From positions 329,044 through 393,043 of the forward strand of contig CAWANQ010000002.1 in assembly GCA_963783435.1 (NCBI GenBank): a DNA stretch of 64,000 nt. The letters run 5' to 3'. The DNA comes from an uncultured Bacteroidota bacterium. Its GTDB lineage: Bacteria; Bacteroidota; Bacteroidia; Bacteroidales; GCA-2748055. Below, piece after piece: positions 16,228-34,036 of this stretch. The stretch's first letter is position 1. Each line of letters opens with the position of its first letter. Position numbers and translations under genes: made by a program. The notes beneath the pieces were generated by a model. The model was not told the origin of the DNA and searched no databases. It saw only the letters and a program-made list of their open reading frames with translations.

Positions 16228-18729
16228 ATGCCGCAGACCAACCAGAACCGCTACTTCATCTCCATTGTCGTGCTTTCCATTTTGACGGTGGGCCTTTTCA
16301 TTCTCTCTATTTTCATAGTTATTCTGCCCCGTTTTGAAAAGACCATTCTCACGGGAAAGAAGGAAATGATCTCAGAATTAACCCAATCGGTGTGCAGCCT
16401 TATTGAAGAATACCACCAGGAAGCTGAGACCTTCCAGATAAGCCTGGATTCTGCGCAGACAATGGCGCTGGAAAGAGTTCGGAAAATGCGCTATGGGGAT
16501 GAACTCAAAGACTATTTCTGGATCATCGATATGCATCCCAATATGATCATGCATCCCTATCGACCCGAGCTGGTGGGCTCAGATCTGAACGATTACAAGG
16601 ATCCGAATGGCAAATTGGTATTTGTGGAATCAGTAAATACGGTTACTGAACAGGGTGAAGGATTCATTGATTATATGTGGCAATGGAAAGACGACAGCAC
16701 CCGCATTGTTCCCAAACTGTCCTATGTGAAAGTCTTTGAACCCTGGGGCTGGATCGTGGGGACGGGAATATATCTGGAGGATGTCCGGATAGAAATAGGA
16801 CTGCTCAGGACCAGGCTGCTCAGAATGGCTTTGTGGATGTCCTTCATCCTGGGAATCATCCTGGCATTTATAACCAGGCAGAGTCTGGGCATAGAAAACC
16901 GGAGACGCAGCGCCGAAAAGGAGCTTCGGCAAAGCCGGGAAAAATACAAAACCCTGGTCCAGGCTTCCACCGAAGGAACCCTGATGATGGTGGATCAAAG
17001 CTTTGCCTTTTCAAACCTCAAATTCAGCAGGCTTTCGGGATACGACCCTACGGAGATAAGAGAGATGGATTTCGAGAGCCTTTTCGACCTGAAGTGGTCC
17101 ACCCTCGTGTCTTCCTTTAAGGACCCGAAAAAATCCATCTCCAGCGAAATCAGTCTGAAATGCAAGGACGGAAGCACCAAAGAAGTGGTCATTTCTGCTT
17201 CCAGGGTAAACCATGCAGAACAGACCACCTATATTCTGATCATTAAGGAGCTTAGTTCGCAAGTGCAATACCAGAGGGAGGGAAAGTTGCTCTCCAGGGA
17301 ATTGCAAAACTCACTGCAACTGATGAACCAGCCCCTGATATCACTGGCCCGGGACATACTGAGATGCCCGGCCAGCACCACAGTACGGGAGGCTGCCAGG
17401 ATCATGACCCGGAAAAAAAGGAATGTTCTTTTTATCTCTCAGGATAATGAAATCATCGGACTGATCACCAACAATGATTTAAACAGAAGGGTGCTGGCTG
17501 CCGGCCTTGATCCTGAAACCAGGGTGATTGAAATCATGACCTCTCCCATTGCCAAACTGCCTGAAAAAGCCCTGATCTACGAAGGCTTACTTCACATGAA
17601 GCGGGAACGCATATCCCACATTGCCCTGCCCGACAAAGATCGAAAAATCGCGCTGGTAGTGGGCTACGAAGAGATACTCCGGATGCAACAGAACCTGCTT
17701 GGCTTTATGATCAGCGAGATTGAAAGTGCCGAAGAGGTGAGTCAGATCACCCGCATCTACCAGCGCTTACCTGTTCTGATTCAAGCGCTTATCGAAAGTG
17801 GCAGCAATACATCGAACCTCACAGAGATCATCAGTTCCGTGGGAGATGCCATTCACAAACGCCTGATCGAAATTGCCCTGGAAGATCTGGGACCTGCTCC
17901 CAGGAACTTTGCCTTTATGGTCATGGGAAGCCAGGCCCGGGGTGAGCAAACCCTGGCCACGGACCAGGATAATGCCATAGTGATTGACAATGATCCCGGA
18001 AAGTTGAGTAAAGAGGATCAGGCTTTCTTTCTCGAATTGGGAAAAAAACTAAATAAGGACCTGAATACGGTGGGGTACAAATTCTGTCCGGGAGAGATCA
18101 TGGCCGGAAATCCAAAGTGGAACCAGGACCTCAACACCTGGCAGTCCTACTTCAGCAAATGGATCCAGAGCAGTGAACCGAAAGACATCCTGGACCTGGC
18201 CATATTCTTAGATTTCCGTGGTATATATGGGGATCTGAGCCTCATTGAAAAACTTCGCGATCATGTGAATCGTTCCGCTGAAGGTAAATCCATATTCTTC
18301 TACCACATGGCCCAACCGATTCTGAAAATGAAAGCCCTGCCCAATCTGCCGGGAAACCTGAAAGCAGCTTCACAATCAGATACCCAGGTGGATATCAAAA
18401 TGGCCCTGATACTGGTCACATCTTTCATCCGGCTGTATGCCATTCGCGAAAAACTGGTATCGAACAATAGTATGGAACGTGCCGAGGAATTGCACAAAAG
18501 GAGTGTAATTAGTGCCTCCACCCTGGAAGAATTAAGCGAAACTTTTGATTTTCTTACTTATCTAAGGATCAAAAATCAGGCATATAGTATATCCCGAAAT
18601 GAAGCTCCAGGGAACACATTCAGATTGGGCCAATTATCACATATCGAAGCCCTCACCCTGAAGAAAATCCACACAGATATTGCCAGCCTTCAAACCCTTC
18701 TGGGCAGCGTATACAGCAGAGCAGATTAA
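16228..18729 (+). CDS. Membrane sensor: extracytoplasmic Cache domain + PAS + CBS pair + DUF294-type nucleotidyltransferase
   Basis: 833-aa ORF. It starts with a TM helix followed by a Cache-like block (YFWIIDMHPNMIMHPYRPELVG...GEGFIDYMWQWKDD...WGWIVGTGIYLEDV). A second TM helix and a PAS-like region follow. Next comes a CBS pair (VREAARIMTRKKRNVLFI...GLITNNDL; ISHIALPD). The C-terminus is nucleotidyltransferase-like (FAFMVMGSQARGEQTLATDQDNAIV) with a helical tail. Confidence 0.72.
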   Translation: MPQTNQNRYFISIVVLSILTVGLFILSIFIVILPRFEKTILTGKKEMISELTQSVCSLIEEYHQEAETFQISLDSAQTMALERVRKMRYGDELKDYFWIIDMHPNMIMHPYRPELVGSDLNDYKDPNGKLVFVESVNTVTEQGEGFIDYMWQWKDDSTRIVPKLSYVKVFEPWGWIVGTGIYLEDVRIEIGLLRTRLLRMALWMSFILGIILAFITRQSLGIENRRRSAEKELRQSREKYKTLVQASTEGTLMMVDQSFAFSNLKFSRLSGYDPTEIREMDFESLFDLKWSTLVSSFKDPKKSISSEISLKCKDGSTKEVVISASRVNHAEQTTYILIIKELSSQVQYQREGKLLSRELQNSLQLMNQPLISLARDILRCPASTTVREAARIMTRKKRNVLFISQDNEIIGLITNNDLNRRVLAAGLDPETRVIEIMTSPIAKLPEKALIYEGLLHMKRERISHIALPDKDRKIALVVGYEEILRMQQNLLGFMISEIESAEEVSQITRIYQRLPVLIQALIESGSNTSNLTEIISSVGDAIHKRLIEIALEDLGPAPRNFAFMVMGSQARGEQTLATDQDNAIVIDNDPGKLSKEDQAFFLELGKKLNKDLNTVGYKFCPGEIMAGNPKWNQDLNTWQSYFSKWIQSSEPKDILDLAIFLDFRGIYGDLSLIEKLRDHVNRSAEGKSIFFYHMAQPILKMKALPNLPGNLKAASQSDTQVDIKMALILVTSFIRLYAIREKLVSNNSMERAEELHKRSVISASTLEELSETFDFLTYLRIKNQAYSISRNEAPGNTFRLGQLSHIEALTLKKIHTDIASLQTLLGSVYSRAD

Positions 18730-19631
18730 AGTGATAAGGAAAGGGAATCGGGCAAATTTGTTCTGCTTAGATCATCAATCAGGAAGCTTGGATTATACCC
18801 TGGATTGATGCATTGAACCGGCACCTTGGAATGGGCAATCACTTCGAGTGTAGTTGATCCTATTTTTGACCTGCGACTGTCATTCTCCAGTCTTGTCATC
18901 ATCAAGATCACTGCCGAATCAATCCTGTTGGAAAAAGCAAGGATCTCCTCGGGGACAGAATTATGTGCAAATAGAAGATGAGAATTGCATTTGATCTGAT
19001 GCGCTCTTAAAAATTGCCTTATTTCTTTTAGCCGGGCTCTATAATGGGGCTCAAAACTGGCCATCTCTTTTGCAATTACACTGATTAAAATAACTCCTGC
19101 ATGCAATAGTCGTGCAGTATCAATCGCGCATGCTACCATGTAATCAACGGGCTTGGATAAATCAAGAGAAACAACCAAATAATTATTTTCGGCAAATCTG
19201 TTTTCGCTTACTGTGATCACAGGCAATTGGGCATGTGTCAGAATATATTTTGTGTTTGAACCAATTTTTCTATTTTTTAAACCCCGGGAATTTGATCGAC
19301 CCATAATGATGAGTTGGGCATTGAGGTCTGAGGCCTTTTCAAGGATCTTTTGATCTACTTTCCCAGAAGTAATGATCAGTTCAAAAGCAGTGCTGTCCTC
19401 TGATTTCAAAACAGAATGGACCCTTTCAGATAGCTTATATTCAGCATCTCGTCGCATCTTTCGCTTGATCTCATTATTTGCCAGGCTGTTGGTCATTAAT
19501 CCGTATTCTTGCATTACATACATGCAAGAAATCATGTCCCTGGACTTAGCGGCAATTTTCCTGGCATAGTGCAATGCAGCATCAGAATGGGGACTAAAAT
19601 CTATAGGCACCAGGATTCTTCTTCTGGTCAT
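18726..19631 (-). CDS. Tandem universal stress protein (UspA family)
   Basis: The track ORF is 18726-19676 with a GTG start. I prefer the ATG at 19631 (MTRRRILVPIDFSPHSDAALHYA, a typical Usp N-terminus), because the 45-nt extension would overlap the predicted promoter at 19649-19677. There is a second Usp half (NYLVVSLDLSKP...). Confidence 0.75.
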   Translation of the reverse strand: MTRRRILVPIDFSPHSDAALHYARKIAAKSRDMISCMYVMQEYGLMTNSLANNEIKRKMRRDAEYKLSERVHSVLKSEDSTAFELIITSGKVDQKILEKASDLNAQLIIMGRSNSRGLKNRKIGSNTKYILTHAQLPVITVSENRFAENNYLVVSLDLSKPVDYMVACAIDTARLLHAGVILISVIAKEMASFEPHYRARLKEIRQFLRAHQIKCNSHLLFAHNSVPEEILAFSNRIDSAVILMMTRLENDSRRSKIGSTTLEVIAHSKVPVQCINPGYNPSFLIDDLSRTNLPDSLSLSL

Positions 19632-19648
19632 TGGGATAGAGTTTACAA

Positions 19649-19677
19649 TTGAGACTAGATACTTGTGAATGGTCACA
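19649..19677 (-). promoter_or_regulatory. Predicted ECF-sigma-type promoter, site a (TGTGACCATT-N11-AGTCTCAA)
   Basis: The reverse complement of 19649-19677 is TGTGACCATTCACAAGTATCTAGTCTCAA. The -10-like box ends 17 nt before the ATG at 19631. Confidence 0.65.
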
Positions 19678-19754: not shown

Positions 19755-20762
19755 TTGGAAAATTCAAAAACGCTTATCTCAGAGGACTTCCTTGATTCTT
19801 TAATGAAAAATGCACCTCTTGGAATCATATCTGTCAATGAAACAGGCATGATTTCCAAAGTGAATCGATTGGCTAAAGTTTTACTTCAGGTAAATCCAAT
19901 AAATAAAAAGCTAATTGGGCAGAGCTTATTGGATTGTGTCCTCCATATCCCATTGCTTCATGAGAAGCTTAGCCGATTTCTCGAAAATAACAGGAAATCA
20001 TTTAATACTGAATTAATCAATATAAATGACAGATACATTACTGTCAAGGGGGTCAGTATTAAGAGTGGATTCATATGTATTATTAATGATGTTACCAGGC
20101 TGAAGGAGATGGAGACTGGGTCTATCCAATCCATCATTGCTGGTCAGGAAAATGAGCGAAGGAGGATAGGCCGGGAAATACATGATGGCATAGGACCTTT
20201 ACTCTCATATTCCAAGCTTGAGTTAGATGCATTCCTGGACGAATACGTGGAACAGAATAAGGATATACCTGACGAGAAGCTGATGAATATTCGCAGTACA
20301 CTTGACACCATCACAAATGATCTTCGCAACCTCTCTCACCATTTGGTACCCCGACTCCTGGAAGAATTCGGATTATTTTCTGCATTTAATAGCCTGACCA
20401 CAAGGTTGAATAATTCAATGAAATCGAAGGTCGAATTCTACTGCAATTTTAATTCCCAGACAAGGTTTGATAAGGACCTGGAGCTTAATCTTTATCGCTG
20501 CGGACAAGAACTTGTGAATAACACAGTGAAACATGCCAAGGCATCAGAAATATTGGTTCAGGTCATTAAACATGAACATAGCATTGTACTTATGGTGGAG
20601 GATGATGGAGTTGGATTTGAACAGAATGCAAAAAATATGGATAATTATGGAATCGGATTAACAAATATCCAAACCAGGGTAAGGACATTAAACGGAGAGT
20701 TTATCATTGAATCACTTGAAAATAGGGGAACGACCGCAAGCATAGAGATTCCGCTTAAATAG
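19755..20762 (+). CDS. PAS sensor histidine kinase, NarL-partner type (HisKA_3 + HATPase)
   Basis: 335-aa ORF. The track start is TTG, and the true start may lie at a downstream Met. There is a PAS-like N-terminus, an H-box (QENERRRIGREIHDGIGPLL) and an ATPase region (VEDDGVGF...GIGLTNIQTRV). Confidence 0.85.
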   Translation: MENSKTLISEDFLDSLMKNAPLGIISVNETGMISKVNRLAKVLLQVNPINKKLIGQSLLDCVLHIPLLHEKLSRFLENNRKSFNTELININDRYITVKGVSIKSGFICIINDVTRLKEMETGSIQSIIAGQENERRRIGREIHDGIGPLLSYSKLELDAFLDEYVEQNKDIPDEKLMNIRSTLDTITNDLRNLSHHLVPRLLEEFGLFSAFNSLTTRLNNSMKSKVEFYCNFNSQTRFDKDLELNLYRCGQELVNNTVKHAKASEILVQVIKHEHSIVLMVEDDGVGFEQNAKNMDNYGIGLTNIQTRVRTLNGEFIIESLENRGTTASIEIPLK

Positions 20763-20781
20763 GGTTGAAAATACAGATATC

Positions 20782-21435
20782 ATGGATAAAATACGGGTGT
20801 TATTAGCTGATGATCATAAAATTTTCAGGGATGGAGTTAGATCAATTTTGGAAAAAGAGAGGGATATGTTGGTGGTGGATGATGCTGCCAATGGAATTGA
20901 GGTATTAGAAAAAATTGAGAAGCTGGAGGTAGATGTGCTTGTGCTTGATATCGATATTGGTAAGCCGAATGGCATTGAGATCACCGAGATGGTCAGTAGA
21001 AATCATCCGGAAGTAAAAATCCTGATTTTGTCCATGATGGGTTTACATGACTTTGTTATACAAGCGCTTGAAAAGGGAGCCATTGGATTCTTACTGAAGA
21101 ATACCGGCAAGGATGAGGTTCTGACTGCAATTCGCAGCGTCTCCAAAGGAGATAGCTATTTCAGTAGAGAAGTTTCAGCAGTTTTAATTGAGCAGTTGCA
21201 CAGACCCGCATCTTCCAGAAAAAAAAATGCAGATATCCCCATCTCACCCAGAGAAATTGAAGTGCTTAAACTAATAGCTCAAGAGTATTCAAATTCAGAG
21301 ATTGCCGAGAAACTTTTTATTAGCATCCGAACTGTGGATACCCATAGGAGAAACCTTCTTGAGAAACTGGGTGCTAAAAATACCGCTGGTTTGGTAAAAT
21401 TTGCCATCCAGAAGGGCCTGGTCGATGAGGCATAA
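20782..21435 (+). CDS. Response regulator, NarL/LuxR family
   Basis: 217-aa ORF. The receiver reads RVLLADDHKIFRDG...VLVLDIDIGKPNG. The LuxR HTH reads SPREIEVLKLIAQEYSNSEIAEKLFISIRTVDTHRRNLLEKLG. Confidence 0.92.
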   Translation: MDKIRVLLADDHKIFRDGVRSILEKERDMLVVDDAANGIEVLEKIEKLEVDVLVLDIDIGKPNGIEITEMVSRNHPEVKILILSMMGLHDFVIQALEKGAIGFLLKNTGKDEVLTAIRSVSKGDSYFSREVSAVLIEQLHRPASSRKKNADIPISPREIEVLKLIAQEYSNSEIAEKLFISIRTVDTHRRNLLEKLGAKNTAGLVKFAIQKGLVDEA

Positions 21436-21442
21436 AACTTCC

Positions 21443-21817
21443 TTAATGGTCATTGTAAAACCAATGAATTGCATCTTCATAATTTGTAAAGGTCTGCACA
21501 TCAACCCCCTTACTTTTGGAGCAAAGCTCCATGAAATACGCTTTCTCAAAATTCACACCCGGTAATGCAAGCAGCGCAATTTTATCTCTATGTGAATCCG
21601 GATCATTGATGAGTACATTTGCCAGAGAAAAAATTTCCGCGGTTGAAAGAACCCATTGAGTGCGTCGAAAATCCAGAAGTATATCATAATCAGCCGGAGG
21701 ATGCTTCACACCTGCTACTTCCCGGAGTCTCTTTTTGCTTTCCTCAAATTCAACGCTTCCATCATCAGCCACAGAGAGATAATCAATAGAGCGAATAATT
21801 CTAATTTTTATATCCAT
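21443..21817 (-). CDS. Hypothetical 124-aa protein
   Basis: Clean ORF 58 nt downstream of the epimerase gene on the same strand. I recognise no motif in it. Confidence 0.4.
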   Translation of the reverse strand: MDIKIRIIRSIDYLSVADDGSVEFEESKKRLREVAGVKHPPADYDILLDFRRTQWVLSTAEIFSLANVLINDPDSHRDKIALLALPGVNFEKAYFMELCSKSKGVDVQTFTNYEDAIHWFYNDH

Positions 21818-21875: not shown

Positions 21876-22940
21876 CTATAGCTTTATTTTTCCAAGTCCA
21901 GGATGGACAGAGGGGTAGAGTATCCCTTGCTCCAATCGGAATAAATCGGAGAAGGGGTCCTCCAGCAAATCCAGGTGACCATCTAAATCGGCGCATACAA
22001 TATTGGGTCGGCTGAGCGTAAAATGAAGTCCAGCCGAGATGCCCAGGGCGCATTCATCAATGCAACCCACCATTACTTCGACTCCGGCTGCTTTTGCTAC
22101 CGAATTGATGTGCTGAGATTCCAGTATTCCACCCACTTTCATAATCTTGATGTTGACCATGTCTATTAAATTGTTGCTCGTCAGGCGGAATGCATCTTTT
22201 AAGGTTTTGAGGCTTTCATCGGCCATAACCCGAATATCATTATTCTGGCTTACCTCTCCCAATCTTTCTTCCTTTTTTTGACTGGTGGGCTGTTCAAATA
22301 TTTCGATGTTTGCACTTTTTGTTTTGCTGATGAATTTGAAAGATTCTTCAGTGGTATACCCCTGATTGGCATCAAAACGAAGGAGAAAATCACCTCCAAG
22401 TTTTTCACGCAACTTCAGAATTTTTTCAATATCCTCAGATAAATTCAATCCCCCTTTCAATTTGAGAATTGAAAACCCTTTCTTCAGGAAGTTTTTTGCC
22501 GTTTCAAGGGTTTCGTCAAGGGGTAAAATCCCAATGGTAATGCTTGTGGGTATTTCATTTCGGTAAGCTCCCAGTAACTGGTAGAGGGGAATTTTGGCTT
22601 TTCGGGCCAGGAGATCATGTAATGCCATGTCGACCATGGCCAGGGTAGATGAAGCACCTGGCAACAACTGTTTGATCAGATCCGTAAACTTGGCGGTTTG
22701 AAATGGAGATTGTTCTTTTAGGAGACTTATGACTACGTTCTCAATATTGCGAATCACCTCTTCGGGAGTCTCACCTGTAACCTCTTTGTCAGGAGCGGCA
22801 CAGCCCCATCCAGTGAGTCCTGTCCCGGTATCCAGCTTCAGTATAATATTTGATGTATGACTTACCGTTTCATAAGCAATGGTATAAGGAATAGCCAGGG
22901 GCATATCCAGCCTGAAATACTCTATGGCCTTTATTTTCAT
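21876..22940 (-). CDS. Enolase-superfamily dipeptide (L-Ala-D/L-Glu-type) or N-acyl-amino-acid epimerase/racemase
   Basis: The start is reassigned to MKIKAIEYFRLDMPL at 22940, whereas the track extends to 22997. The layout is that of the mandelate racemase / muconate lactonising enzyme family (LKLKGG, RFDANQGY, EQP, MADES, KIMKVGG). Confidence 0.8.
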   Translation of the reverse strand: MKIKAIEYFRLDMPLAIPYTIAYETVSHTSNIILKLDTGTGLTGWGCAAPDKEVTGETPEEVIRNIENVVISLLKEQSPFQTAKFTDLIKQLLPGASSTLAMVDMALHDLLARKAKIPLYQLLGAYRNEIPTSITIGILPLDETLETAKNFLKKGFSILKLKGGLNLSEDIEKILKLREKLGGDFLLRFDANQGYTTEESFKFISKTKSANIEIFEQPTSQKKEERLGEVSQNNDIRVMADESLKTLKDAFRLTSNNLIDMVNIKIMKVGGILESQHINSVAKAAGVEVMVGCIDECALGISAGLHFTLSRPNIVCADLDGHLDLLEDPFSDLFRLEQGILYPSVHPGLGKIKL

Positions 22941-22941
22941 T

Positions 22942-23763
22942 CTAATACCTGTTTTGAAAAAGTTTATCAGATGGAGTGTTTTTGATGGTCTCCACAAAAT
23001 CGGCCATTTTTCGGATCATAATTTCCCACATCTTATGCCCCTTCTCGGCACTGGCTAAAGTTGCATTCCCCATCACTCCCGATTTCGTCAATGTTTTTGT
23101 ATGCACATACCAACTCACCCCACGTTCAGAGGTGAAATCCAGGTATTCATTATCCAGGTCAAGGGTGTCATCTACGGCCTTGTCCATATCTACCAGTTCA
23201 GGTCTTATGGCCAGGCTTGTGCTTGTTTCAATTTCTCCTGCATGGATGTCATTGCGGGTCTCGATCAAACCATACAAATCCACGTCACTGGTTTCACCGG
23301 TTTCTACACAAACGAATATTTTGGCATCACGGTTGATCATCTGGGCTGCATAATTCAGGGTTGGAGCATTATCGCCGTGGCCATTTAGGATGACCAGTTT
23401 CTTGATGCCATTTTGTGCAAGACTCATGCCGATATCGTATATAAGAGCCGACAAGGCATTGTTGGTCACACAGATTGTTCCTTTAAACTGACTGTGGTGA
23501 TAGGAGACACCGTAAGGGAGAGGTGGCAATACAAATGGTTTGGGATCCTGACAGGCTTCAGCTACTTTACGGGCCATATAGTCTGCATCAAAATAATCCA
23601 CATCCAGAGGCAGGTGCGGACCATGCTGTTCTATGGCTCCACAGGGCAGAATGGCCGTATCCACAATTTTCAATCGCTCTGTAATTTCAGGCCACTTAAG
23701 CGTGGCCCACATGTATTCAGGATACTCAACTTTGTCTTTCATCCCATCTATATTTTGCTTCAT
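22942..23763 (-). CDS. Creatininase-family amidohydrolase
   Basis: 273-aa ORF. It has the pattern typical of the creatinine amidohydrolase / MftE / ArfB family: ILPCGAIEQHGPHLPLDVD...VILNGHGDN...HAGEIETS. Confidence 0.8.
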   Translation of the reverse strand: MKQNIDGMKDKVEYPEYMWATLKWPEITERLKIVDTAILPCGAIEQHGPHLPLDVDYFDADYMARKVAEACQDPKPFVLPPLPYGVSYHHSQFKGTICVTNNALSALIYDIGMSLAQNGIKKLVILNGHGDNAPTLNYAAQMINRDAKIFVCVETGETSDVDLYGLIETRNDIHAGEIETSTSLAIRPELVDMDKAVDDTLDLDNEYLDFTSERGVSWYVHTKTLTKSGVMGNATLASAEKGHKMWEIMIRKMADFVETIKNTPSDKLFQNRY

Positions 23764-25243
23764 TTAAAAATTCTTCATCCACTTTTACGTCGATCCAACG
23801 CTTGTTCTCTCTCTTTACAGCTCCATCAGCATATTGAGAAAGGATATTAAACAAAGGTTTGCGAATATACTTAGGCAAATCCTCCAGATTACTCCTTTCT
23901 TTATCGAAGCGGAGTTTGGTAATTTCTGCATGTTCCCTGGCGATCTTTTCAGTGAGTCCATTTCGTTGAATCAGATTTTTCCTCAGCATCAGGTAATATA
24001 GATGTGAGGCGTCGCTTCCGATCTGTTTTACCGAATGTGATTCAAGTGCTTTTAATCCCTGCGCAATCTGGACCTCACTGTACCCACATCTTTCAGGATT
24101 CTCATCAAGGGCTTTTAGCATCCCGACGATCCTTCGACACTTCTCACACTTTCCACATGGATACATTCTTCCATTTACTTCATGGGCTGCATGACATGAA
24201 ACCTGGTGCTTTTGAAGATCGGGATAGCGCTTAATAAGAACTTTCATAATAAGCAGTTCCGACATACTCCGAAGAATGGAGAACTGATTGATTCTCCACC
24301 CCTTGTTCCTGTAATACCGGGTCATGGCGTTGTCGAAATATTTACTCTGATCGTAAAGGCCATTGTAGTGTGTGATGCCCTGCAAGTTGCTTGTTAGGGT
24401 GGTATCGTATTCATCCCCTATAAGGATATTTCCGATCCCCTTTTTACGGGCCACGGGAAGCACACCAAACAAAAATACCGCCACAGTCCAGAGCCTAATC
24501 GGATAGATATCAGATCTGATAGAGGCGAAATTTTCTTTGATAAAAGGCAATTGCTTAAGCATCCAGTTGAACAGTCGGTCGCTGTTGCACCATGGCTTCC
24601 TGGTATTTGGTTCGTTTTCATGGAAGAACCTGTGCGCATTGACGGCAGTAAACCAATGCCTTCCCGCTTCGTTGATGAAAATCGGGTAAGGCTCCCCGAA
24701 CTCTTTAACCAATCCATAAGTCAACAGGCTATCCTTTCCTCCACTGCTCAGAATGGCATATTTGGCCGGATCCGTTTCATCGATTTCACGGCCCAGTTTC
24801 ATTTGCTGGTATTGGGTGTTGAGAAAGTGGATCTGAGCCTGGGTGTAGCGGTCTTTTTTTTCCGGCTTCAACTCATCAAAAGGAGGCTTCAGAAATTCAT
24901 TTTTAACCAGGAGCTTGTTGGTTAAAATTTCCCGTGATGTGTTTTCCATCATATCTTTAATGAACTTCTGATCGCTCAGGTCAAAGAGTCCATCGAATTC
25001 AATTATTTCAAAAAAGAGCCCATAATTCAGGGCTGCCTGAGCCAGCATCATGGAGGCCAGATTTACATCGGCCGGCCGCAAACGATCAAAATACGGCTGC
25101 TCATAGGAGTAGATCAATTCAAAGGAGCTTACTTCACCGGCAAATCCTTCTACCTGATAAAGCGCTTTCACCTTTTTTGGCTCAATATGAATATTCTTTA
25201 TGGTAAGCTTCCTTAGTACTTTGAATGAATCCAGCGTAATCAT
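23726..25243 (-). CDS. PP-loop ATP pyrophosphatase (QueC/asparagine-synthetase-like adenylating enzyme) with unknown N-terminal domain
   Basis: 505-aa ORF. It has a PP-loop (AILSSGGKDS) and a QueC-like C-terminal Cys cluster (VSCHAAH...YPCGKCEKCRR). The first ~160 aa are unassigned. Confidence 0.6.
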   Translation of the reverse strand: MITLDSFKVLRKLTIKNIHIEPKKVKALYQVEGFAGEVSSFELIYSYEQPYFDRLRPADVNLASMMLAQAALNYGLFFEIIEFDGLFDLSDQKFIKDMMENTSREILTNKLLVKNEFLKPPFDELKPEKKDRYTQAQIHFLNTQYQQMKLGREIDETDPAKYAILSSGGKDSLLTYGLVKEFGEPYPIFINEAGRHWFTAVNAHRFFHENEPNTRKPWCNSDRLFNWMLKQLPFIKENFASIRSDIYPIRLWTVAVFLFGVLPVARKKGIGNILIGDEYDTTLTSNLQGITHYNGLYDQSKYFDNAMTRYYRNKGWRINQFSILRSMSELLIMKVLIKRYPDLQKHQVSCHAAHEVNGRMYPCGKCEKCRRIVGMLKALDENPERCGYSEVQIAQGLKALESHSVKQIGSDASHLYYLMLRKNLIQRNGLTEKIAREHAEITKLRFDKERSNLEDLPKYIRKPLFNILSQYADGAVKRENKRWIDVKVDEEFLNEAKYRWDERQS

Positions 25244-26310
25244 TTCAAATAAGATTTCAATACTCCCACGAGATCATCAGCTCCAAAAAGTAATACATCA
25301 AATGCTGGAAGTCCGGTCTCCAGGGTAATATCTTTACAAGCAGGTAATACCTCTTCTTCTGTCATCTCTTCATGATTCACCGTGATGGCAATGACCTTTT
25401 TACCGGAAATGGTTTCAATGGCATGAATCTGCTCTTTGAGCGAATGTAAGGGGTAGCCCGGGAATCCATCGTATTCTTTTCTTTTAGGAGCATGCTGAAG
25501 AACCACATAATCGGGCCTTCCGGCAGCCAGGATCTCAAACCCTCCGGGATAAGCAGGATTCATCAAACTACCCTGACCTTCGATAACAATGAGATCTGGC
25601 GATTCATTCTTCCATGCTTCATGTACGGCATGTTCGATCTCACCGGAGACAAAATCATTGATGCAGCTATCCATGATCATGGAATATTTTGCCCCCTGCA
25701 TCCAGGCAGTTTGTCCGGTGCCTGCTATTTCGGCTTTTAAGCCTGCCTTCCTGAATGCGTGAACAATAATCCAGGCGCTTGTTCTTTTACCGATGGCCGA
25801 ATCGGTTCCCAGGAGGGCAATTTTCAAACAGTCGACCTCCTCAATTTTGCCGGAAAAAAAATGCAGCTCATGGCGGTCAGGCGTTCTGCGAACATCCCTC
25901 ACCCTGCAGTTGAATCTTTTTGCAATGGCCATCAGCTTGGCATCCTTGTATAAAAAATCATGAAGACCACTGTCTACATTCATTCCCAGCTCCAGTGCTG
26001 CCATGATCGTCTTTTTGCCTTCAGCCGGAAGACGGCCCCCATCGGTCGCAAGACCAACAACCAGGGTAGTGGGCTTGTTTTCAGAGCCGAGCCTTTCCAG
26101 GGCTTCCTCCAGGTTCTTAAAAATGGGAATGTTTAACATTTTACTGTCCAGCACCATCCCTGCATCCCGACCTGCATATTTTTGATCGATCACCCCCACA
26201 ACTTCGTACCTTTCGGTAAACCTCACTAAGCCGTGAGCTGTTTTCCCATATGGCGTATTAAATGCCCCATCGGCATACACCAGAGCCTTGCCATCAATAG
26301 TTTGTTTCAT
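25240..26310 (-). CDS. DUF1611-family protein (DgcN-like; P-loop-containing)
   Basis: 356-aa ORF. It carries the family hallmarks: DGAFNTPYGKTAHGLVRF, GLATDGGRLP, LLGTDSAIGKRTS, TGQTAWMQG and IEGQGSLMNPAYPG. Confidence 0.72.
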   Translation of the reverse strand: MKQTIDGKALVYADGAFNTPYGKTAHGLVRFTERYEVVGVIDQKYAGRDAGMVLDSKMLNIPIFKNLEEALERLGSENKPTTLVVGLATDGGRLPAEGKKTIMAALELGMNVDSGLHDFLYKDAKLMAIAKRFNCRVRDVRRTPDRHELHFFSGKIEEVDCLKIALLGTDSAIGKRTSAWIIVHAFRKAGLKAEIAGTGQTAWMQGAKYSMIMDSCINDFVSGEIEHAVHEAWKNESPDLIVIEGQGSLMNPAYPGGFEILAAGRPDYVVLQHAPKRKEYDGFPGYPLHSLKEQIHAIETISGKKVIAITVNHEEMTEEEVLPACKDITLETGLPAFDVLLFGADDLVGVLKSYLK

Positions 26311-26334
26311 TCAATAAAAAATTGATACCTGTTT

Positions 26335-27396
26335 TTAATACTTTCCGGTCAAAATTGCGACATACCTGTCATTGATCATTTCACTCTTTTCGTGTACCTC
26401 AAGCAGAGCAATCAGGCCTGATGTGGATGCCGGCAATATCCTGTAGCCCTCTTTTTTATGCAAAAAAGTGCTCATCTCCTTCATCTTTCTATCACTGATG
26501 TGATGGGCCTCCCCACCTGATTCTCTCAGGGCATAAAGTGCCTCATTTCCATCAAAACTATGCCAGTTAATCAGCGGTTCATTAATGGCCGTCTCCCTGA
26601 CCAGTTTTGGATCAATATCTTCACAGGTATCGAGTCCGGATTTGAAAGAGGAGATAATCGGATTTTTATAGGCCGCCGAGCCCGCGATAAATATTGGAAT
26701 CCGTGAGGTCCTGCCACGCTTATACAAGCGCACAAAACCCCGGTAAATTCCTGCCAGAAGTGTGCCGTTGGAAACCGGTGCCGCAATGTATTTAGGTGCA
26801 TCGCGTAACTGGTCATAAATCTCCTCTGCAATTTCGGCATAAGCGGCAATTTGCAAATGCGTATTGGCACCGCCGGGATTGGCATCATACCAGCCGTTCT
26901 TTTTTGCCAGGATGCTCGATTCCTTCACTGCATCCTCATAGGTGCCAGGAAGCTTTATGATCTCTGCATCAAAGTTTAACATCTCACTGGTACGCTCGGT
27001 GTGGTAGGTTTCAGGAATAAAAATCTTGCATGAAATACCTGCCAGGTAGGCCGCATAGGCAATAGCCACACCATAATTTCCACAGGTTGCCAGTGAAATG
27101 ACCTTAAAGTTTCTTCGAAATGCATCCTGAACCTGGGCAAAAGCGATTCGGTCCTTTTGTGTACCTGAAGGGTTCTCTCCTTCATACTTAATATAGAGTT
27201 GCCGGATGTTCAGTTCCCTTTCAAGATTGCGTGCCCTTTTAAGTGAAGTATCACCCACCTCAAGGTTAATGATGTCCTCAAATGATTCAATCCGGTCAAT
27301 AATTGACAAGCTGTCATCCTGAACCATGTCGCTGAGAATCTTGACTTCCTTACTAATTTTAATTTCAGCTGATTTAACGCCATCTAAAAGGTTCAT
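26335..27396 (-). CDS. Fold-type II PLP enzyme (threonine-synthase / cysteine-synthase-like)
   Basis: 353-aa ORF. The PLP-lysine region is YEGENPSGTQKDRIAFAQV (compare NPTGSFKDR), followed by ATCGNYG and SNGTLLAG. Confidence 0.75.
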   Translation of the reverse strand: MNLLDGVKSAEIKISKEVKILSDMVQDDSLSIIDRIESFEDIINLEVGDTSLKRARNLERELNIRQLYIKYEGENPSGTQKDRIAFAQVQDAFRRNFKVISLATCGNYGVAIAYAAYLAGISCKIFIPETYHTERTSEMLNFDAEIIKLPGTYEDAVKESSILAKKNGWYDANPGGANTHLQIAAYAEIAEEIYDQLRDAPKYIAAPVSNGTLLAGIYRGFVRLYKRGRTSRIPIFIAGSAAYKNPIISSFKSGLDTCEDIDPKLVRETAINEPLINWHSFDGNEALYALRESGGEAHHISDRKMKEMSTFLHKKEGYRILPASTSGLIALLEVHEKSEMINDRYVAILTGKY

Positions 27397-27431
27397 TTGA
27401 TCTTTTTTATCCCGATCGGGTTATTTATCAG

Positions 27432-27460
27432 TTTAGACCTTTATAAACAAAATAGTCACT
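27432..27460 (-). promoter_or_regulatory. Predicted ECF-sigma-type promoter, site g (AGTGACTATT-N11-GGTCTAAA)
   Basis: The reverse complement of 27432-27460 is AGTGACTATTTTGTTTATAAAGGTCTAAA. It starts 3 nt after the sigma-gene stop and ends 35 nt before the ATG at 27396. Confidence 0.6.
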
Positions 27461-27463
27461 TCC

Positions 27464-28054
27464 TTAGGCTGCATCCTGCAGACTCAGTATCTGGCCCATT
27501 TTGGTCCGTGCCCTCAATAACCGCATTTTTACAGCACTGGCAGAAAGATCGAATTCATCCTGAAGGTCTTTTACCGAGTAATTCTGACGATACTTTAAAA
27601 CCAGAATTTGCCTCTCCTCTTCCGATAACATCATCAGGTATTCATCGAGGTTTGATTCCAATGCCTCCCATTTTAACCTTGCTTTATAATCTTCTTCATC
27701 CATCCACTCAGCCAGCATTTGCTGCGCTGCCACAATATCTTCATAATATTGTTTCCTTTTCTTTTTGGTCTGAGTGATGCAATAATTGGTAGCAATGGAA
27801 TACAACCAGGTTGAGAATTTCGAGTTTCCCCCAAAGGAGCTCACATTACAGATAGCCTTCACCAATATTTCCTGGGTCATATCAAACGCATCATCTCCAT
27901 TGCGCGAAAAAGAAAAGCACTTAGAATAGACTTTTGAATAATATCGATTGTATAAAATTCCAAAGCAGCTGTTATCTCCTTTCAGGAATTCATCAATAAG
28001 TTGTTCATCGCTTAATCCTTTATACCTCAAATTTTTCATCTTAGTAAATTTCAT
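27464..28054 (-). CDS. ECF-type RNA polymerase sigma-70 family factor (no adjacent anti-sigma)
   Basis: 196-aa ORF. Region 2 reads DDAFDMTQEILVKA...FSTWLYSIATNYC. Region 4 reads LSEEERQILVLKYRQNYSVKDLQDEFDLSASAVKMRLLRAR. Confidence 0.85.
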   Translation of the reverse strand: MKFTKMKNLRYKGLSDEQLIDEFLKGDNSCFGILYNRYYSKVYSKCFSFSRNGDDAFDMTQEILVKAICNVSSFGGNSKFSTWLYSIATNYCITQTKKKRKQYYEDIVAAQQMLAEWMDEEDYKARLKWEALESNLDEYLMMLSEEERQILVLKYRQNYSVKDLQDEFDLSASAVKMRLLRARTKMGQILSLQDAA

Positions 28055-30283: not shown

Positions 30284-31330
30284 TTACAAGCAAGCCATCT
30301 CGTCGTTATCGAAATTTCTATTGTAATAACTCATATAATCGACCTTGTTCTCCAACGCATCCAGAACTGCATTGCTGAAATTCACCTTTTCGAAAATCTG
30401 TGCACTACCCAGGCCGCCGGGGCTAAATACATTGATTTCCATCAGTTTATCACCAACAATGTCCAGACCCACCAAAAACATGCCATCCTGAACGAGTTTT
30501 GGCCGAACAATCTCCGCCAGTTGCAGGTGCTGGTCTGTAATTACCGCCTGCCGCATTTTTCCACCAGCATGGATATTGCTCCTCATATCATCGCCCGTTC
30601 TGACTCTTCTGAATGCTGCATATTTCCCTTTATATCGCATGGGTCTTCCATTCATCATAAACAACCTGGTATCCCCCTCATGAGCAGCTGGTAAGTATTC
30701 CTGTGCAATGATATAACCGTCTCTTTGAAGTGCTTCAACGATCTGATTAAGGTTGGATTTATCCTCCGGTTTGACCAGAAAAACACCGGATCCTCCAGAC
30801 CCTTGAAGTGGCTTTAACACAATATGGCCTCCATGCTCACTGGCGAAGTGCTTGATATCGCTCAGGTTACGGGTGATCATGGTTCGGGGGCGAACCTGTT
30901 CCGGAAAGAGCTGAAAATAGCTTTTGTTAAGTGCTTTGGACAAGCCGTTGGGATCGTTTAAAACAATTACTCCATGCCGCATGGCAATCCGGCCAAAATT
31001 AATTCCTGCTGTTGCGGCCCAGGAACGGGATCCAATCTCATTGGCCGGATCACTCCTGAGCATCAGAATATCCAGGTCATCCACTGTGATGCGTTCCATC
31101 ACCCTGGTTTTGCTCTGAAGGGCCTTTAAATATGTTTCCGTGGTCTTATAAGTTTTCTTAACTACAGAGTAAGCTCTGGCCCTGATATTTTCATCCGGAT
31201 CATAGGCAAAATCACCCAGACCGATGACCCAGACTTCATGTCCCCGGTTCGTTGCCCACATACCCAAACGGGTTGTGGTATAACCGCTCTGTTCTGTCAT
31301 TACATCATTTACTACAAATCCTATTTTCAT
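30284..31330 (-). CDS. Glutathione-synthetase-like (GshB family) ATP-grasp ligase
   Basis: 348-aa ORF. It aligns by eye with prokaryotic GshB: LMLRSDPA, VLKPLQGSGGSGVF, EGDTRLFMMNG, SNIHAGG and FLVGLDIVGDKLMEINVFSPGG. Confidence 0.8.
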   Translation of the reverse strand: MKIGFVVNDVMTEQSGYTTTRLGMWATNRGHEVWVIGLGDFAYDPDENIRARAYSVVKKTYKTTETYLKALQSKTRVMERITVDDLDILMLRSDPANEIGSRSWAATAGINFGRIAMRHGVIVLNDPNGLSKALNKSYFQLFPEQVRPRTMITRNLSDIKHFASEHGGHIVLKPLQGSGGSGVFLVKPEDKSNLNQIVEALQRDGYIIAQEYLPAAHEGDTRLFMMNGRPMRYKGKYAAFRRVRTGDDMRSNIHAGGKMRQAVITDQHLQLAEIVRPKLVQDGMFLVGLDIVGDKLMEINVFSPGGLGSAQIFEKVNFSNAVLDALENKVDYMSYYNRNFDNDEMACL

Positions 31331-31341
31331 AATTCACTGTT

Positions 31342-33249
31342 TTATATAAGGTTAAATATAAGCTTTCCATTCCTTAATTCCTCAAGCCTTGAAAGGGACT
31401 GTGGCTCGTTCAGGTATTTTGGAGAGAGAAGAGCAGGCTTTAACACCTTGCGGTATTGAAGCTCATTGATCAGGGGGATGTTTTTTATGGATATCTTTCC
31501 CACAAGCAAGGGCTCCAGCTTACCTCCTTCTCTTAGATAATCCAAAAGTCTTATCAGGCCCCTGAGGTATACTGCATCTTTGGTAAATCCACCACTCCTG
31601 TATATTCGTGAAGTAATTACATAGGCCGATCTGCTTGCAAATCCATGCCTGTGGTTTAATTCTCTGAATGTTTCGATAAAGCTAGCCCCCTCAATCAGCA
31701 TCTGGGCAGCGATGACCCGGCCGGCCAGCAACCGAAATCTGGGGGGACTCAACCCGCCCACCAGATATTCAGAAAGTACAGCTAGCCCTTCCTGTAATTC
31801 ATCATATCCGGCTAGTCCGCTATATAGCTGCTGAAGCGGTTGATTCAGACCATTCACATAGGTCAGAACATGTGTGCCTACCTCATGCTGGATCAAAGCT
31901 TCTACCCTGGATTCAGGAACTTTTAGCCGTTTGCCAATCAAAAGATTTCCGGACGAAACCATTAAACCGGTAATGTCATCGCGGACAATTACCTTAGATG
32001 CTATTTCCGGATAAACTTCTGAAAATCTGGATATTTCCTGCCTGGCCCGCTCAGCAAAGTAGTTGGCATTAACCTGTTTACTACCTCGAATTTCTCGGCT
32101 GCGGGGAGATAGTGTATCCAGGATTCCTTTTGACAAGGTGATAAGCCTTTCATCCATTTCCCCAAAAAGCTGCATGCTTCCATAGAAAAAATTGCGCGTG
32201 TTTCGATCCCTTAGCATGGAAAATTTCTTCTCCAGCTCAACCAGTTTTTCATGGAATACAGCTGATAGTGTGGGGTCCTCAATCCGGTCAAATGGAATTT
32301 TATAGAGCTGCCGTTTAAGCACCGAGGGGTCAAAATTTATCGGTCTATAATTGAACACCGGCTCTCGCGTAAATCGACTCTCATTGAATTTACTCCAGGA
32401 CTGCTCGATATTGACAGGTGTAACCATCATCAGGAAGTCAAATTGATTGCTGATTTCAGCCAGCTTCCGATCCACCTCCCAAACTGCATTCACTACTGCG
32501 CGTCGTCCAAGGGATTGATAGTTTTCTGGATTGGCTTTGGTGCGTTTCTGCGAAAAAGAGTAAGCACCCTGTTTTAGAGCCACGGATACGCCTCTGTGTA
32601 TTCTTTTTAGAACAACTGGAAATACTTCCTTTGAATCCGGATCTCGATAAATGGGAGAAACCTCAAGTCCCACTGCATAACAATTGTTTTTCAATACGTC
32701 ACCCGGTGTCAGTAAGAAGGGCAATTTCTCCGGCCAGGGTCTCTTTGAATAGGTCGTTGAAACAATCCCTCGGTTTTTGGAAACCCTGATCCGTTTTAAT
32801 GCTTTTCCAATGGATTCGATGGTTTCATCCGGGATGCGATTATCGGGTACCAGGATTCGAAATTCAGGAGCTGTCCTGCTATTGTTTGCATCAATAATGT
32901 CAATGGGAGCTACCCGGGCCCAGATTTCAATGATAAGAAAAGCACCAAAGGTGGAGGACAGTGTTTCAACAACCGCTTTCACCAGTGAAGATACGCCCGA
33001 TTTATACCTGGGTGCAGCTGGGGCCACCAGATACGAGGCCTCTCCTTTGATGAGCTGCTCCGTTCCCTCATCTGCATGAGATTTTGAACGACGGTACACA
33101 AACAAAAAGGGTAGATTTCTGTCAATATGCAACCTGCCCTGGCCGGGAAGGGTTCTTCTTACCTGTTTATTCTCACCAAGTCGTTTGGTGATTTCGTAGA
33201 TAAAATCAGCAGTAATTTCATTTTGAATTGTTACCCTACTTTGACTCAT
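31342..33249 (-). CDS. DUF1704 / MATCAP-family metallopeptidase-like protein (QEGLA motif protein)
   Basis: 635-aa ORF. It has an HExxxH motif (IQHEVGTHVLTY) followed by YDELQEGLAVLSEY, the signature of the 'QEGLA motif' family. Confidence 0.78.
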   Translation of the reverse strand: MSQSRVTIQNEITADFIYEITKRLGENKQVRRTLPGQGRLHIDRNLPFLFVYRRSKSHADEGTEQLIKGEASYLVAPAAPRYKSGVSSLVKAVVETLSSTFGAFLIIEIWARVAPIDIIDANNSRTAPEFRILVPDNRIPDETIESIGKALKRIRVSKNRGIVSTTYSKRPWPEKLPFLLTPGDVLKNNCYAVGLEVSPIYRDPDSKEVFPVVLKRIHRGVSVALKQGAYSFSQKRTKANPENYQSLGRRAVVNAVWEVDRKLAEISNQFDFLMMVTPVNIEQSWSKFNESRFTREPVFNYRPINFDPSVLKRQLYKIPFDRIEDPTLSAVFHEKLVELEKKFSMLRDRNTRNFFYGSMQLFGEMDERLITLSKGILDTLSPRSREIRGSKQVNANYFAERARQEISRFSEVYPEIASKVIVRDDITGLMVSSGNLLIGKRLKVPESRVEALIQHEVGTHVLTYVNGLNQPLQQLYSGLAGYDELQEGLAVLSEYLVGGLSPPRFRLLAGRVIAAQMLIEGASFIETFRELNHRHGFASRSAYVITSRIYRSGGFTKDAVYLRGLIRLLDYLREGGKLEPLLVGKISIKNIPLINELQYRKVLKPALLSPKYLNEPQSLSRLEELRNGKLIFNLI

Positions 33250-34031
33250 TCATCTTAGAAATTTCATCCATTAGTCCTGGAACAGTATCATTCAGCATAT
33301 CTGATATGGCTCCAATAAATTCCCAATCTGGCATACCCGACCATTCATCCATGAAAATCTTTTTAAACTCAACTGAAATGCAACATGCAGACTCTTTAAA
33401 ATTATTGTGAATCCAGGTGGGAAAATAACCTCCCCGAAACTTAACATTTTCCCTCACATCCAATTTCCTCCCCAGGATGTCAGCACCTTTCAAATCATTT
33501 ATAAACCTATCTACCAAAGGTGCCCAATAATTTCGATCCATGGTCCCTGTACCGATATTTATTTCAGGATTCAATAGGGGATCATCGGGTGGGGCATCCG
33601 CTCCTTTGCGACGATGGTTATAACTATGAAAATCAAGAATCACGATTTTCCCGAAGCGTTCAATCAGGCTGGCTAAGGCCCTCATGAATTCTCTCATACG
33701 TTTCTGTATACTCTTTCAGTGCATTTTGAGTAACTGCTTCCGGGGGCGCTGCTTTCCATACATTCAGTCCCCATGCATCCGAGGGTGACAGGTAAATGGC
33801 CTTCTCGGGGGGGCGGTTGAGATCAAATTCAAATCGGGACATGCGCGCCACGATATGATTTTCAGACATTTTTGCCCAAACGCCGGTAAATGGGTCTTCC
33901 TCCCTCAGCCGATCTAGTCTCACTCAATGCGAACAGGCGAAGATGATCCATACTTAACTGGTGTCCATCGTGAATCGCCGTTGTAACGATTGGGGAATTA
34001 CTTTTTAACTCAATAACGCAAGTCTGGTTCA
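33236..34031 (-). pseudogene. N-formylglutamate-amidohydrolase-family (FGase) gene interrupted by 2-3 frame changes
   Basis: Three pieces make up the gene. The first is ATG at 34031, shifting within a few codons into ..PDCVIELKSNSPIVTTAIHDGHQLS..LFALSE (unlisted frame, open 33862-34089). The second is RLDRLREEDPFTGVW...EYTETYER (33660-33923). The third is EFMRALASLIERFGKIVILDFHSYNHRR... (33236-33697). Joined, they read as one FGase-like protein. Confidence 0.62.
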
Positions 34032-34036
34032 TATTT

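Follow-up and report, generated by a model that had tools for sequence, protein, structure and literature searches.

A five-gene enzyme cassette shared by at least eight bacterial phyla combines a DgcN-like protein, a remote MurL relative and a dipeptide-type epimerase, suggesting a possible route of amino-acid N-acylation and epimerisation

We analysed a 64,000-nucleotide (nt) stretch of DNA from an uncultured Bacteroidota bacterium (contig CAWANQ010000002.1, positions 329,044 to 393,043; hereafter the window), in which five minus-strand genes are packed into a cassette that recurs with the same genes in the same order at some 130 further loci, spread over at least eight phyla. The genes encode, in order, a fold-type II pyridoxal 5′-phosphate (PLP) enzyme resembling threonine synthase (ThrC), a DUF1611 protein, a 505-residue PP-loop protein, a creatininase-family amidohydrolase and an enolase-superfamily epimerase (Table 1). 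Tentatively, we propose a pathway in which an amino acid is N-acylated and activated with ATP, then freed of its acyl group and epimerised, by a logic akin to that of DgcN/DgcA and of MurL. It is possible, although here we are more doubtful, that the outcome would be ATP-dependent biosynthesis of a D-residue-containing cationic dipeptide or a non-canonical D-amino acid, a stress or cell-envelope metabolite, by a MurL/QueC-related family fused to a creatininase-type amidohydrolase.

Conservation of the gene set was assessed by scanning one genome per GTDB species with the 505-residue protein, which yielded 50 loci, and by an independent metagenome scan, which yielded 80 further loci; presence of a gene was counted where the contig had room for it. 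The order PLP, DUF1611, PP-loop, creatininase, epimerase was recovered by tblastn with the five window proteins in nearly all 50 genome loci, at 50–92% identity, and the full collinear set was found in 38 of the 41 metagenome loci with enough flanking sequence. Taken singly, the DUF1611 gene was present at 60 of 63 testable metagenome loci, the PLP gene at 50 of 52, the creatininase gene at 63 of 65 and the epimerase gene at 57 of 59. Recurrence in the same order across genome and metagenome loci led us to reject chance juxtaposition of the five genes. The first-pass annotation of this DNA had named a lack of co-occurrence in other genomes as an outcome that would overturn its reading; instead, the five genes travel together across phyla. 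When all flanking open reading frames (ORFs) at 131 loci were clustered, no sixth conserved neighbour emerged, the next commonest being found at 11 of the 131 loci, nor did any dedicated transporter or regulator conserved with the cassette. The five genes are a self-contained, operon-like enzyme unit.

Carriers are found in Bacteroidota, Calditrichota, Marinimicrobia, SAR324, Desulfobacterales, Aminicenantes and Ignavibacteria, along with two metagenome-assembled genomes (MAGs) labelled Eubacteriales, and the hosts are mostly marine or sediment heterotrophs. Within Bacteroidota they include Draconibacterium, Saccharicrinis, Lutibacter, Pelagihabitans, Algivirga, Phaeodactylibacter, Maribacter and others, several of them in culture (Draconibacterium mangrovi GM2-18, Lutibacter citreus 1KV19, Pelagihabitans pacificus TP-CH-4, Algivirga pacifica JCM 18326 and Saccharicrinis sp. 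156). The window proteins are 76–85% identical to those of a Calditrichota MAG, and this level of identity points to horizontal spread of the cassette. A plasmid search in protein mode returned no match. A reading as a defence system was dropped, since PADLOC matched none of the five proteins. Full-text literature searches found no described pathway with this gene set, in agreement with the first-pass annotation.

The 505-residue protein is built from an N-domain (approximately residues 1–157), a QueC-like core with a four-cysteine site and a C-terminal helical domain. It has no Pfam match, and PDB sequence searches with the protein alone and with a 26-sequence family profile returned nothing meaningful. 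Its AlphaFold2 model (predicted local distance difference test score, pLDDT, 78.8; predicted template modelling score, pTM, 0.81) had QueC as its top Foldseek match (3bl5, E 4e-4, template modelling (TM) score 0.68 on the target), together with the QueC-like Cap9 (9nto_B, E 3e-3) and weak matches to TtuA, LarE and GMP synthetase. The PP-loop and residues C350, C363, C366 and C369 are kept even in relatives of 23–35% identity, the cysteines being invariant or nearly so. The QueC sequence models of Pfam and NCBIfam did not match the protein. Modelled alone, the N-domain (pLDDT 81) had no PDB neighbour below E 1e-3 in Foldseek and showed weak RNase-H-like topologies with TM scores below 0.4, in line with the ‘unknown’ N-domain of the first-pass annotation.

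The relation of this protein to MurL is read solely from NCBIfam hidden Markov model scores. MurL (NF041275) is its single NCBIfam match (E 1e-3, residues 269–372), and the same model matches 9 of 24 diverse family members, with a best E-value of 7e-10 over profile positions 130–354 of 447. The matched stretch corresponds to the PP-loop through the cysteine cluster, and no other PP-loop family recurs among the 24 members scanned. A MurL-like intermediate, P0225, bridges the 505-residue family and MurL by sequence. A search with this intermediate returned six relatives, one of them on a phage-like contig; a close relative of P0225 is P0291, a 466-residue PP-loop protein (L066:2599–3999), whose contig carries many short same-strand ORFs without Pfam matches and is phage-like in look. 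Judged by its modelled fold and these profile scores, the 505-residue protein is a predicted QueC-fold adenylating enzyme of a new family and a remote MurL homologue. The initial label of PP-loop adenylating enzyme is thereby upheld for the PP-loop and the QueC-like core, through Foldseek, and refined to remote MurL homologue through NCBIfam. MurL itself is ATP/Mg-dependent and AMP-forming, acts from L to D only and has been described as having no known conserved domains (PMC5808125, PMC8788868; 2018, 2021). In public data, the 505-residue protein has more than 3000 homologues at 90% clustering and 377 related clusters at 50% identity among 1.84 billion representative proteins, and its homologues are annotated as hypothetical or as QueC.

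The structural matches also bear on a nucleobase or cofactor pathway, in which the QueC-like enzyme would act on a heteroaromatic (7-deazapurine-like) carboxylate and the creatininase-type enzyme would be a ring or formamide hydrolase, as ArfB is. That the best structural matches are QueC and Cap9, that ArfB belongs to the creatininase family and that the related P0225/P0291 subfamily occurs on a phage-like contig are all in its favour, but no queuosine or pterin gene accompanies the cassette, each partner is an enzyme of amino-acid chemistry (PLP beta-family, DUF1611 and dipeptide epimerase) and the ArfB model scores just 23 bits. We consider such a pathway highly improbable.

The partner enzymes belong to recognisable families, and the family calls of the first-pass annotation were borne out by Pfam and NCBIfam (PALP; DUF1611_N and DUF1611; Creatininase; MR_MLE_N and MR_MLE_C). 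The PLP enzyme matches PF00291 (E 8e-51), and its NPSGTQKDR motif corresponds in alignment to NPTGSFKDR in ThrC. Against the cluster-derived model PRK06381 (‘threonine synthase’) it scores 416 bits, above the cutoff of 266, but it falls below the cutoff of the curated thrC model TIGR00260 (97.6 versus 167 bits). In T. thermophilus ThrC, residues T88, N154, S155 and R160 reportedly bind the phosphate of O-phosphohomoserine, a finding credited to Omi et al. in 2003. At these positions the cassette enzyme has Y/G/G/Q, in an alignment to ThrC structures that varies slightly between templates in the phosphate-site loop. The enzyme is ThrC-like, but O-phosphohomoserine is probably not its substrate. 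Of the description ‘threonine-synthase-like’, the PALP fold and the PLP-lysine motif therefore stand, whereas a genuine ThrC is contradicted by the phosphate site and the unmet thrC cutoff.

The DUF1611 protein has the PF17396 and PF07755 domains (DUF1611_N and DUF1611_C), as does DgcN, and its sole NCBIfam match is the DgcN model NF041892, at 155 bits against a cutoff of 480. A P-loop, GTDSAIGKRT (GTDxxxGK), and an IEGQGSL motif are common to this protein and PDB entries 2g0t, 2obn and 7xrj. We propose that it is a DgcN paralogue and a putative N-acyltransferase. The link between DUF1611 and a D-glutamate N-acetyltransferase, which the first-pass annotation had raised, proved correct (NF041892; PMC10845958, PMC12363236). 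DgcN and DgcA form an established acetylate-then-racemise route (PMC10845958, PMC12363236), and this route, together with the match of the DUF1611 protein to the DgcN model only, supports a scheme of acylation followed by inversion.

The creatininase-family protein matches PF02633 (E 2e-69, 234 bits) and scores below the cutoffs of the MftE (140 versus 172 bits), creatininase (116 versus 235 bits), IolN (90 versus 245 bits) and ArfB (23 versus 180 bits) models. Conservation is 95% or more at the motifs for metal binding and catalysis (EQHGPHLP..D.D, NGHGDN and HAGE.ETS), and we propose a putative deacylase or amide hydrolase.

The epimerase contains PF02746 and PF13378, and its best PDB matches are YkfB (1jpm), the Methylococcus capsulatus enzyme 3rit and the Enterococcus faecalis enzyme 3jva (E ~1e-60). 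Alignment to 1jpm identified the KxK motif (KLKGG), the second lysine (NIKIMK), the D/E/D metal ligands and the DxD motif (ADLDG), and a GCIDE segment resembles GCMDE of 3rit (C-x-D-E). The position of YkfB Arg24 is occupied by Glu24, which is invariant in 35 orthologues, and the catalytic, metal, DxD, Glu24 and C-x-D-E positions are at least 95% conserved in this set. In YkfB, Arg24 binds the gamma-carboxylate of the substrate Glu and the DxD motif binds the free N-terminal ammonium of the dipeptide, and the M. capsulatus enzyme (3rit/3ro6) was reportedly crystallised with L-Arg-D-Lys; residue-level specificity rules for dipeptide epimerases are said to have been set out by Lukk et al. in 2012. 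Replacement of Arg24 by Glu24 suggests a cationic substrate, and with an acidic pocket of E24 and D/E the enzyme is probably specific for a cationic C-terminal residue. By analogy with YkfB, the signature points away from Ala-Glu and towards a dipeptide whose N-terminus is free and whose C-terminal side chain is basic or donates hydrogen bonds. The original wording, ‘dipeptide or N-acyl-amino-acid epimerase’, survives in its enolase-type dipeptide part; an Ala-Glu type does not, given Glu24 and scores below the Ala-Glu epimerase cutoffs (NF041118, 221 versus 500; NF011708, 83.5 versus 343).

The best PDB match, the B. subtilis L-Ala-D/L-Glu epimerase YkfB, is what speaks for ordinary murein-peptide (L-Ala-D-Glu) recycling by known enzyme types. 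Besides the invariant Glu and the low Ala-Glu scores, no LD-carboxypeptidase, NlpC/P60 or MpaA-type gene is linked to the cassette, and the known route has no role for the other four enzymes. We rejected plain murein recycling on the Glu24 residue, the scores and the absence of linked recycling genes, and give it almost no credence.

Our proposed pathway takes the step order from the gene order; in it, an amino acid would pass through an intermediate that is N-acylated or dipeptidyl and would change its configuration at the alpha-carbon. The ThrC-like PLP enzyme would make an amino acid outside the standard set, whose side chain is probably basic or polar, or, in reverse, consume it; the DUF1611 protein, as a DgcN paralogue, would then N-acylate this amino acid. 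The PP-loop enzyme would adenylate the alpha-carboxylate of the acylated intermediate, converting ATP to AMP, and either couple it to an amine or second amino acid, forming an amide as QueC and Cap9 do, or invert it one way, as MurL does. The creatininase-family metallo-amidohydrolase would take off the acyl group, and the enolase-type epimerase would equilibrate L and D forms at the C-terminal residue of a free-amine, probably cationic dipeptide. Overall, the pathway would yield either a dipeptide with a D-residue or a non-canonical D-amino acid in free form. We infer the substrates, the direction of the pathway and the choice between ligation and epimerisation at the third step from homology, motifs and gene context. 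The absence of a transporter from the cassette fits substrates drawn from central metabolism.

Natural gene fusions join consecutive steps of this proposed order. The PP-loop and creatininase parts form one ORF of more than 700 residues in 48 of 130 sampled loci. Several of the 377 protein clusters are fusions as well: PP-loop–creatininase in P0121, P0123, P0173 and P0174, DUF1611–PP-loop in P0126 and PP-loop–methyltransferase in P0124. In the clade with fused PP-loop and creatininase parts (L110–L119, L123, L144, L145, L047 and L048), a NIF3/DUF34-like gene comes after the epimerase gene in 9 of the 11 loci that carry it (e.g. L118:11535–12497), and there it acts as a lineage-specific sixth gene. 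More distant members (32–36% identity) keep the PLP, DUF1611 and PP-loop genes together while the accessory enzymes are exchanged: a GNAT acetyltransferase is found at L054, L062 and L064, a histone deacetylase (HDAC)-type deacetylase with a GNAT-like N-domain stands in place of the creatininase gene at L064, and an MR_MLE protein is encoded on the opposite strand at L062. At L129, an AlaDh/PNT-type dehydrogenase gene (L129:6572–7912) is inserted between the DUF1611 and PP-loop genes. As judged from their predicted families, the variants have in common a PLP/DUF1611/PP-loop core accompanied by enzymes that would transfer acyl groups, deacylate and epimerise.

Several points weigh against this proposal. 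The functional scheme is built on homology, motifs and gene context, not on biochemistry. The MurL score of the window protein, 17.6 bits, lies far below the cutoff of 700, and the DUF1611 protein scores far enough below the DgcN cutoff that its acyl donor and acceptor may differ from those of DgcN. The epimerase gene is non-adjacent in 7 of the 50 genome loci and the creatininase gene is absent from a few loci, so the fourth and fifth steps may be dispensable. An ATP-driven MurL-like enzyme and a reversible enolase-type epimerase look redundant unless the third step is a ligation, and those relatives that have been characterised (DgcN/DgcA, YkfB) serve catabolism or salvage rather than biosynthesis.

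An alternative is a catabolic or salvage route, resembling DgcN/DgcA, that would feed on the D-amino acids or D-residue peptides of cell-wall necromass. Here the DUF1611 protein would acetylate a D-amino acid, the enolase-superfamily enzyme would racemise the N-acyl derivative and the creatininase-type enzyme would deacylate it to the L-form, with the PLP enzyme degrading the product by beta-elimination and the ATP-dependent enzyme making the inversion irreversible. The pairing of DUF1611 and enolase-superfamily proteins mirrors DgcN and DgcA (PMC10845958), the carriers are mostly marine or sediment heterotrophs, and dgcN-like genes are reported to be frequent among trench-sediment Bacteroidia and Marinisomatia (PMC12363236), both of them taxa with the cassette. 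However, the cassette has no conserved companion gene for a transporter, a peptidase or a catabolic regulator, and expenditure of ATP would be unusual for catabolism. Moreover, the epimerase has the dipeptide DxD motif rather than the signature of an N-acyl amino acid racemase and is without the Glu-binding Arg24, and both the DgcN and DgcA models score far below cutoff. We regard salvage as rather unlikely.

In the window, the five ORFs lie exactly as annotated in the first pass, with the quoted NPSGTQKDR and SGGKDS motifs, and every gap or overlap between them is at most 38 nt. The reported spacings were likewise recovered: genes 1 and 2 are 24 nt apart, the stop codon of gene 2 and the start codon of gene 3 overlap in ATGA (25240–25243), genes 3 and 4 overlap by 38 nt, and a single nucleotide, 22941, separates genes 4 and 5. 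If the creatininase gene starts at Met8, as in many orthologues, its overlap with gene 3 shrinks to 17 nt. The epimerase ORF can be extended to a TTG at 22997; orthologue alignments begin at the ATG, giving 354 residues.

Table 1. Cassette genes and neighbouring features in the window
Feature	Coordinates	Strand	Remarks
Gene 1, fold-type II PLP enzyme, ThrC-like	26335–27396	−	353 aa; NPSGTQKDR present
Gene 2, DUF1611 protein	25240–26310	−	356 aa
Gene 3, PP-loop protein	23726–25243	−	505 aa; SSGGKDS at residues 166–172; Cys350/363/366/369
Gene 4, creatininase-family binuclear metallo-amidohydrolase	22942–23763	−	273 aa
Gene 5, enolase-superfamily (muconate-lactonizing enzyme, MLE, subgroup) dipeptide epimerase	21876–22940	−	354 aa from ATG
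Whole cassette	21876–27396	−	five genes
Stretch separating gene 1 from the ECF sigma gene (presumed promoter or leader)	27397–27463	−	67 nt
Extracytoplasmic function (ECF)-type sigma factor gene, directly upstream of the cassette	27464–28054	−	67 nt from gene 1
ORF 3′ of the epimerase gene	21443–21817	−	124 aa; 58 nt from the epimerase gene
Tandem universal stress protein (USP) gene	18726–19676	−	
Histidine kinase / LuxR-type response regulator pair	19755–21435	+	
GshB/RimK-like ATP-grasp ligase gene	30284–31330	−	L100 homologue 88% identical
MATCAP/DUF1704-like metallocarboxypeptidase homologue	31342–33249	−	L100 homologue 67% identical
N-formylglutamate amidohydrolase (FGase)-like gene	33254–34032	−	split across three reading frames relative to L100 homologue
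GNAT acetyltransferase–carbon-nitrogen hydrolase (nitrilase superfamily) fusion	34202–35728	+	508 aa

No sigma-70-like match was found in the region immediately upstream of gene 1, the sequence of which resembles that of the closest relative only (L003); a 17-nt stretch of it has a single further occurrence in the window, with 3 mismatches, no more than chance would give. Between the ECF sigma gene and the cassette there is no recognisable anti-sigma gene. On the other side, the 124-residue ORF downstream of the epimerase gene has no Pfam or NCBIfam match and no counterpart at other loci.

The genes around the cassette bear on the possibility of a stress metabolite or compatible solute, which might be a dipeptide or else a diamino acid carrying an N-acyl group, an amide or a ring; amidation or ring closure would then fall to the PP-loop enzyme, as in AsnO of the N-acetylglutaminylglutamine amide (NAGGN) pathway or in ectoine ring closure. 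A dipeptide-type solute had been suggested in the first-pass annotation from a stress-promoter and channel context. Mechanosensitive-channel genes do occur near the cassette, 14 of them in 878 kb of flanks and at 11 of 131 loci, an apparent enrichment that is uncalibrated against the same genomes, and there are nearby genes for CorA at 6 loci, USP at 5 and ECF sigma factors at 7. At L129, two mannosylglycerate-synthase-like glycosyltransferase genes flank a mechanosensitive-channel gene downstream of the cassette (L129:12503–16235). The absence of a transporter is consistent with synthesis, and QueC chemistry runs from carboxylate through amide to nitrile. Yet such neighbours are absent from approximately 85% of loci, the epimerase and amidohydrolase have no obvious role in solute synthesis, and the enzyme set matches no known solute. 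With an ECF sigma gene at 7 and a channel gene at 11 of the 131 loci, the supposed context is not conserved, and the dipeptide-solute idea is unsupported as stated and remains speculation, even though channel genes do look enriched. Overall, we think a solute pathway unlikely.

The wider neighbourhood in the window includes further enzymes of peptide chemistry. The ATP-grasp ligase, metallocarboxypeptidase and FGase-like genes make up a second peptide-modifying set that is also found near the cassette in L100; the split FGase-like gene would be either a pseudogene or the result of sequencing errors. Homologues of the GNAT–nitrilase fusion lie within approximately 2 kb of the cassette in L010, L013, L015, L032 and L033, and this protein may be an accessory enzyme of the pathway. 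The tandem-USP gene and the adjacent histidine kinase and response regulator genes are syntenic with L100 and L043, though the cassette proteins are just ~54–64% identical.

If the cassette does serve ATP-dependent biosynthesis of a D-configured dipeptide or amino acid by a new family related to MurL and QueC, adenylation-driven stereoinversion of the MurL type would extend from peptidoglycan precursors to small-molecule metabolism in many phyla. The cassette represents a widespread enzyme pathway whose signature enzyme lies outside Pfam. What is surprising is its breadth and rigidity, the natural fusion of an ATP-dependent enzyme with an amidohydrolase and the finding of MurL relatives in the QueC fold class. 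Placing MurL in the PP-loop/QueC fold class, with a large family of relatives outside peptidoglycan synthesis, would make it easier to work out how ATP drives peptide epimerisation. Marine D-amino-acid surveys score DUF1611 genes as ‘dgcN’, and some of the ‘dgcN’ genes of Bacteroidia and Marinimicrobia may belong instead to the five-gene cassette, in which case inferred D-glutamate fluxes would change. Since cultured carriers exist, the function of the cassette is directly testable.

Every component of the cassette is from a known superfamily, and its logic resembles DgcN/DgcA and MurL. The route to NAGGN by Ngg and AsnO is alike in logic only, through N-acetylation and the ATP-dependent amide chemistry of a PP-loop-type enzyme, leading to a small peptide-like stress solute; the cassette proteins have no homology to Ngg (GNAT and ATP-grasp) or AsnO, and the cassette adds a PLP enzyme, an epimerase and an amidohydrolase. 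Closer by structure are QueC and Cap9, which have in common with the 505-residue protein the PP-loop SGGxDS, the four-cysteine site and the core fold found by Foldseek, and which adenylate a carboxylate that a nitrogen nucleophile then attacks. Unlike QueC, of ~220 residues, the cassette protein has extra N- and C-domains, and there is no queuosine or cyclic-oligonucleotide-based anti-phage signalling system (CBASS) context, no PADLOC match and no match to a QueC sequence model.

The epimerases YkfB/YcjG and M. capsulatus 3rit/3ro6 share ~1e-60 similarity with the cassette enzyme, as well as the lysine pair, the metal ligands and DxD, and 3rit also has the C-x-D-E segment; the cassette enzyme differs from YkfB/YcjG in having Glu24 for Arg24, in belonging to a five-gene cassette rather than a murein-recycling operon and in that its specificity is predicted. 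The DgcN–DgcA system of D-glutamate catabolism in marine Proteobacteria and haloarchaea likewise uses a DUF1611 N-acyltransferase and an enolase-superfamily racemase/epimerase, followed by a deacylase (PMC10845958, PMC12363236). However, the window proteins are below the cutoffs for DgcN (155 versus 480) and DgcA (138 versus 400), the cassette epimerase is dipeptide-type and without the Glu-binding Arg, the cassette has three more obligatory partners (the PLP, MurL/QueC-like and creatininase-type enzymes), and the taxa are different.

MurL works on the C-terminal residue of an N-acylated peptide with ATP and Mg, releasing AMP (PMC5808125, PMC8788868). The cassette differs from it in the very remote similarity (17.6 bits versus a cutoff of 700), in having no adjacent murD2 and no Mur ligase gene in any of the 131 loci, in being accessory and outside peptidoglycan synthesis, and in the frequent fusion of the 505-residue family to a creatininase-type hydrolase, its activity being a prediction. 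Nevertheless, MurL is the sole characterised family matched by sequence by the 505-residue protein and its relatives, and it too has an N-domain of ~130–160 residues ahead of the PP-loop.

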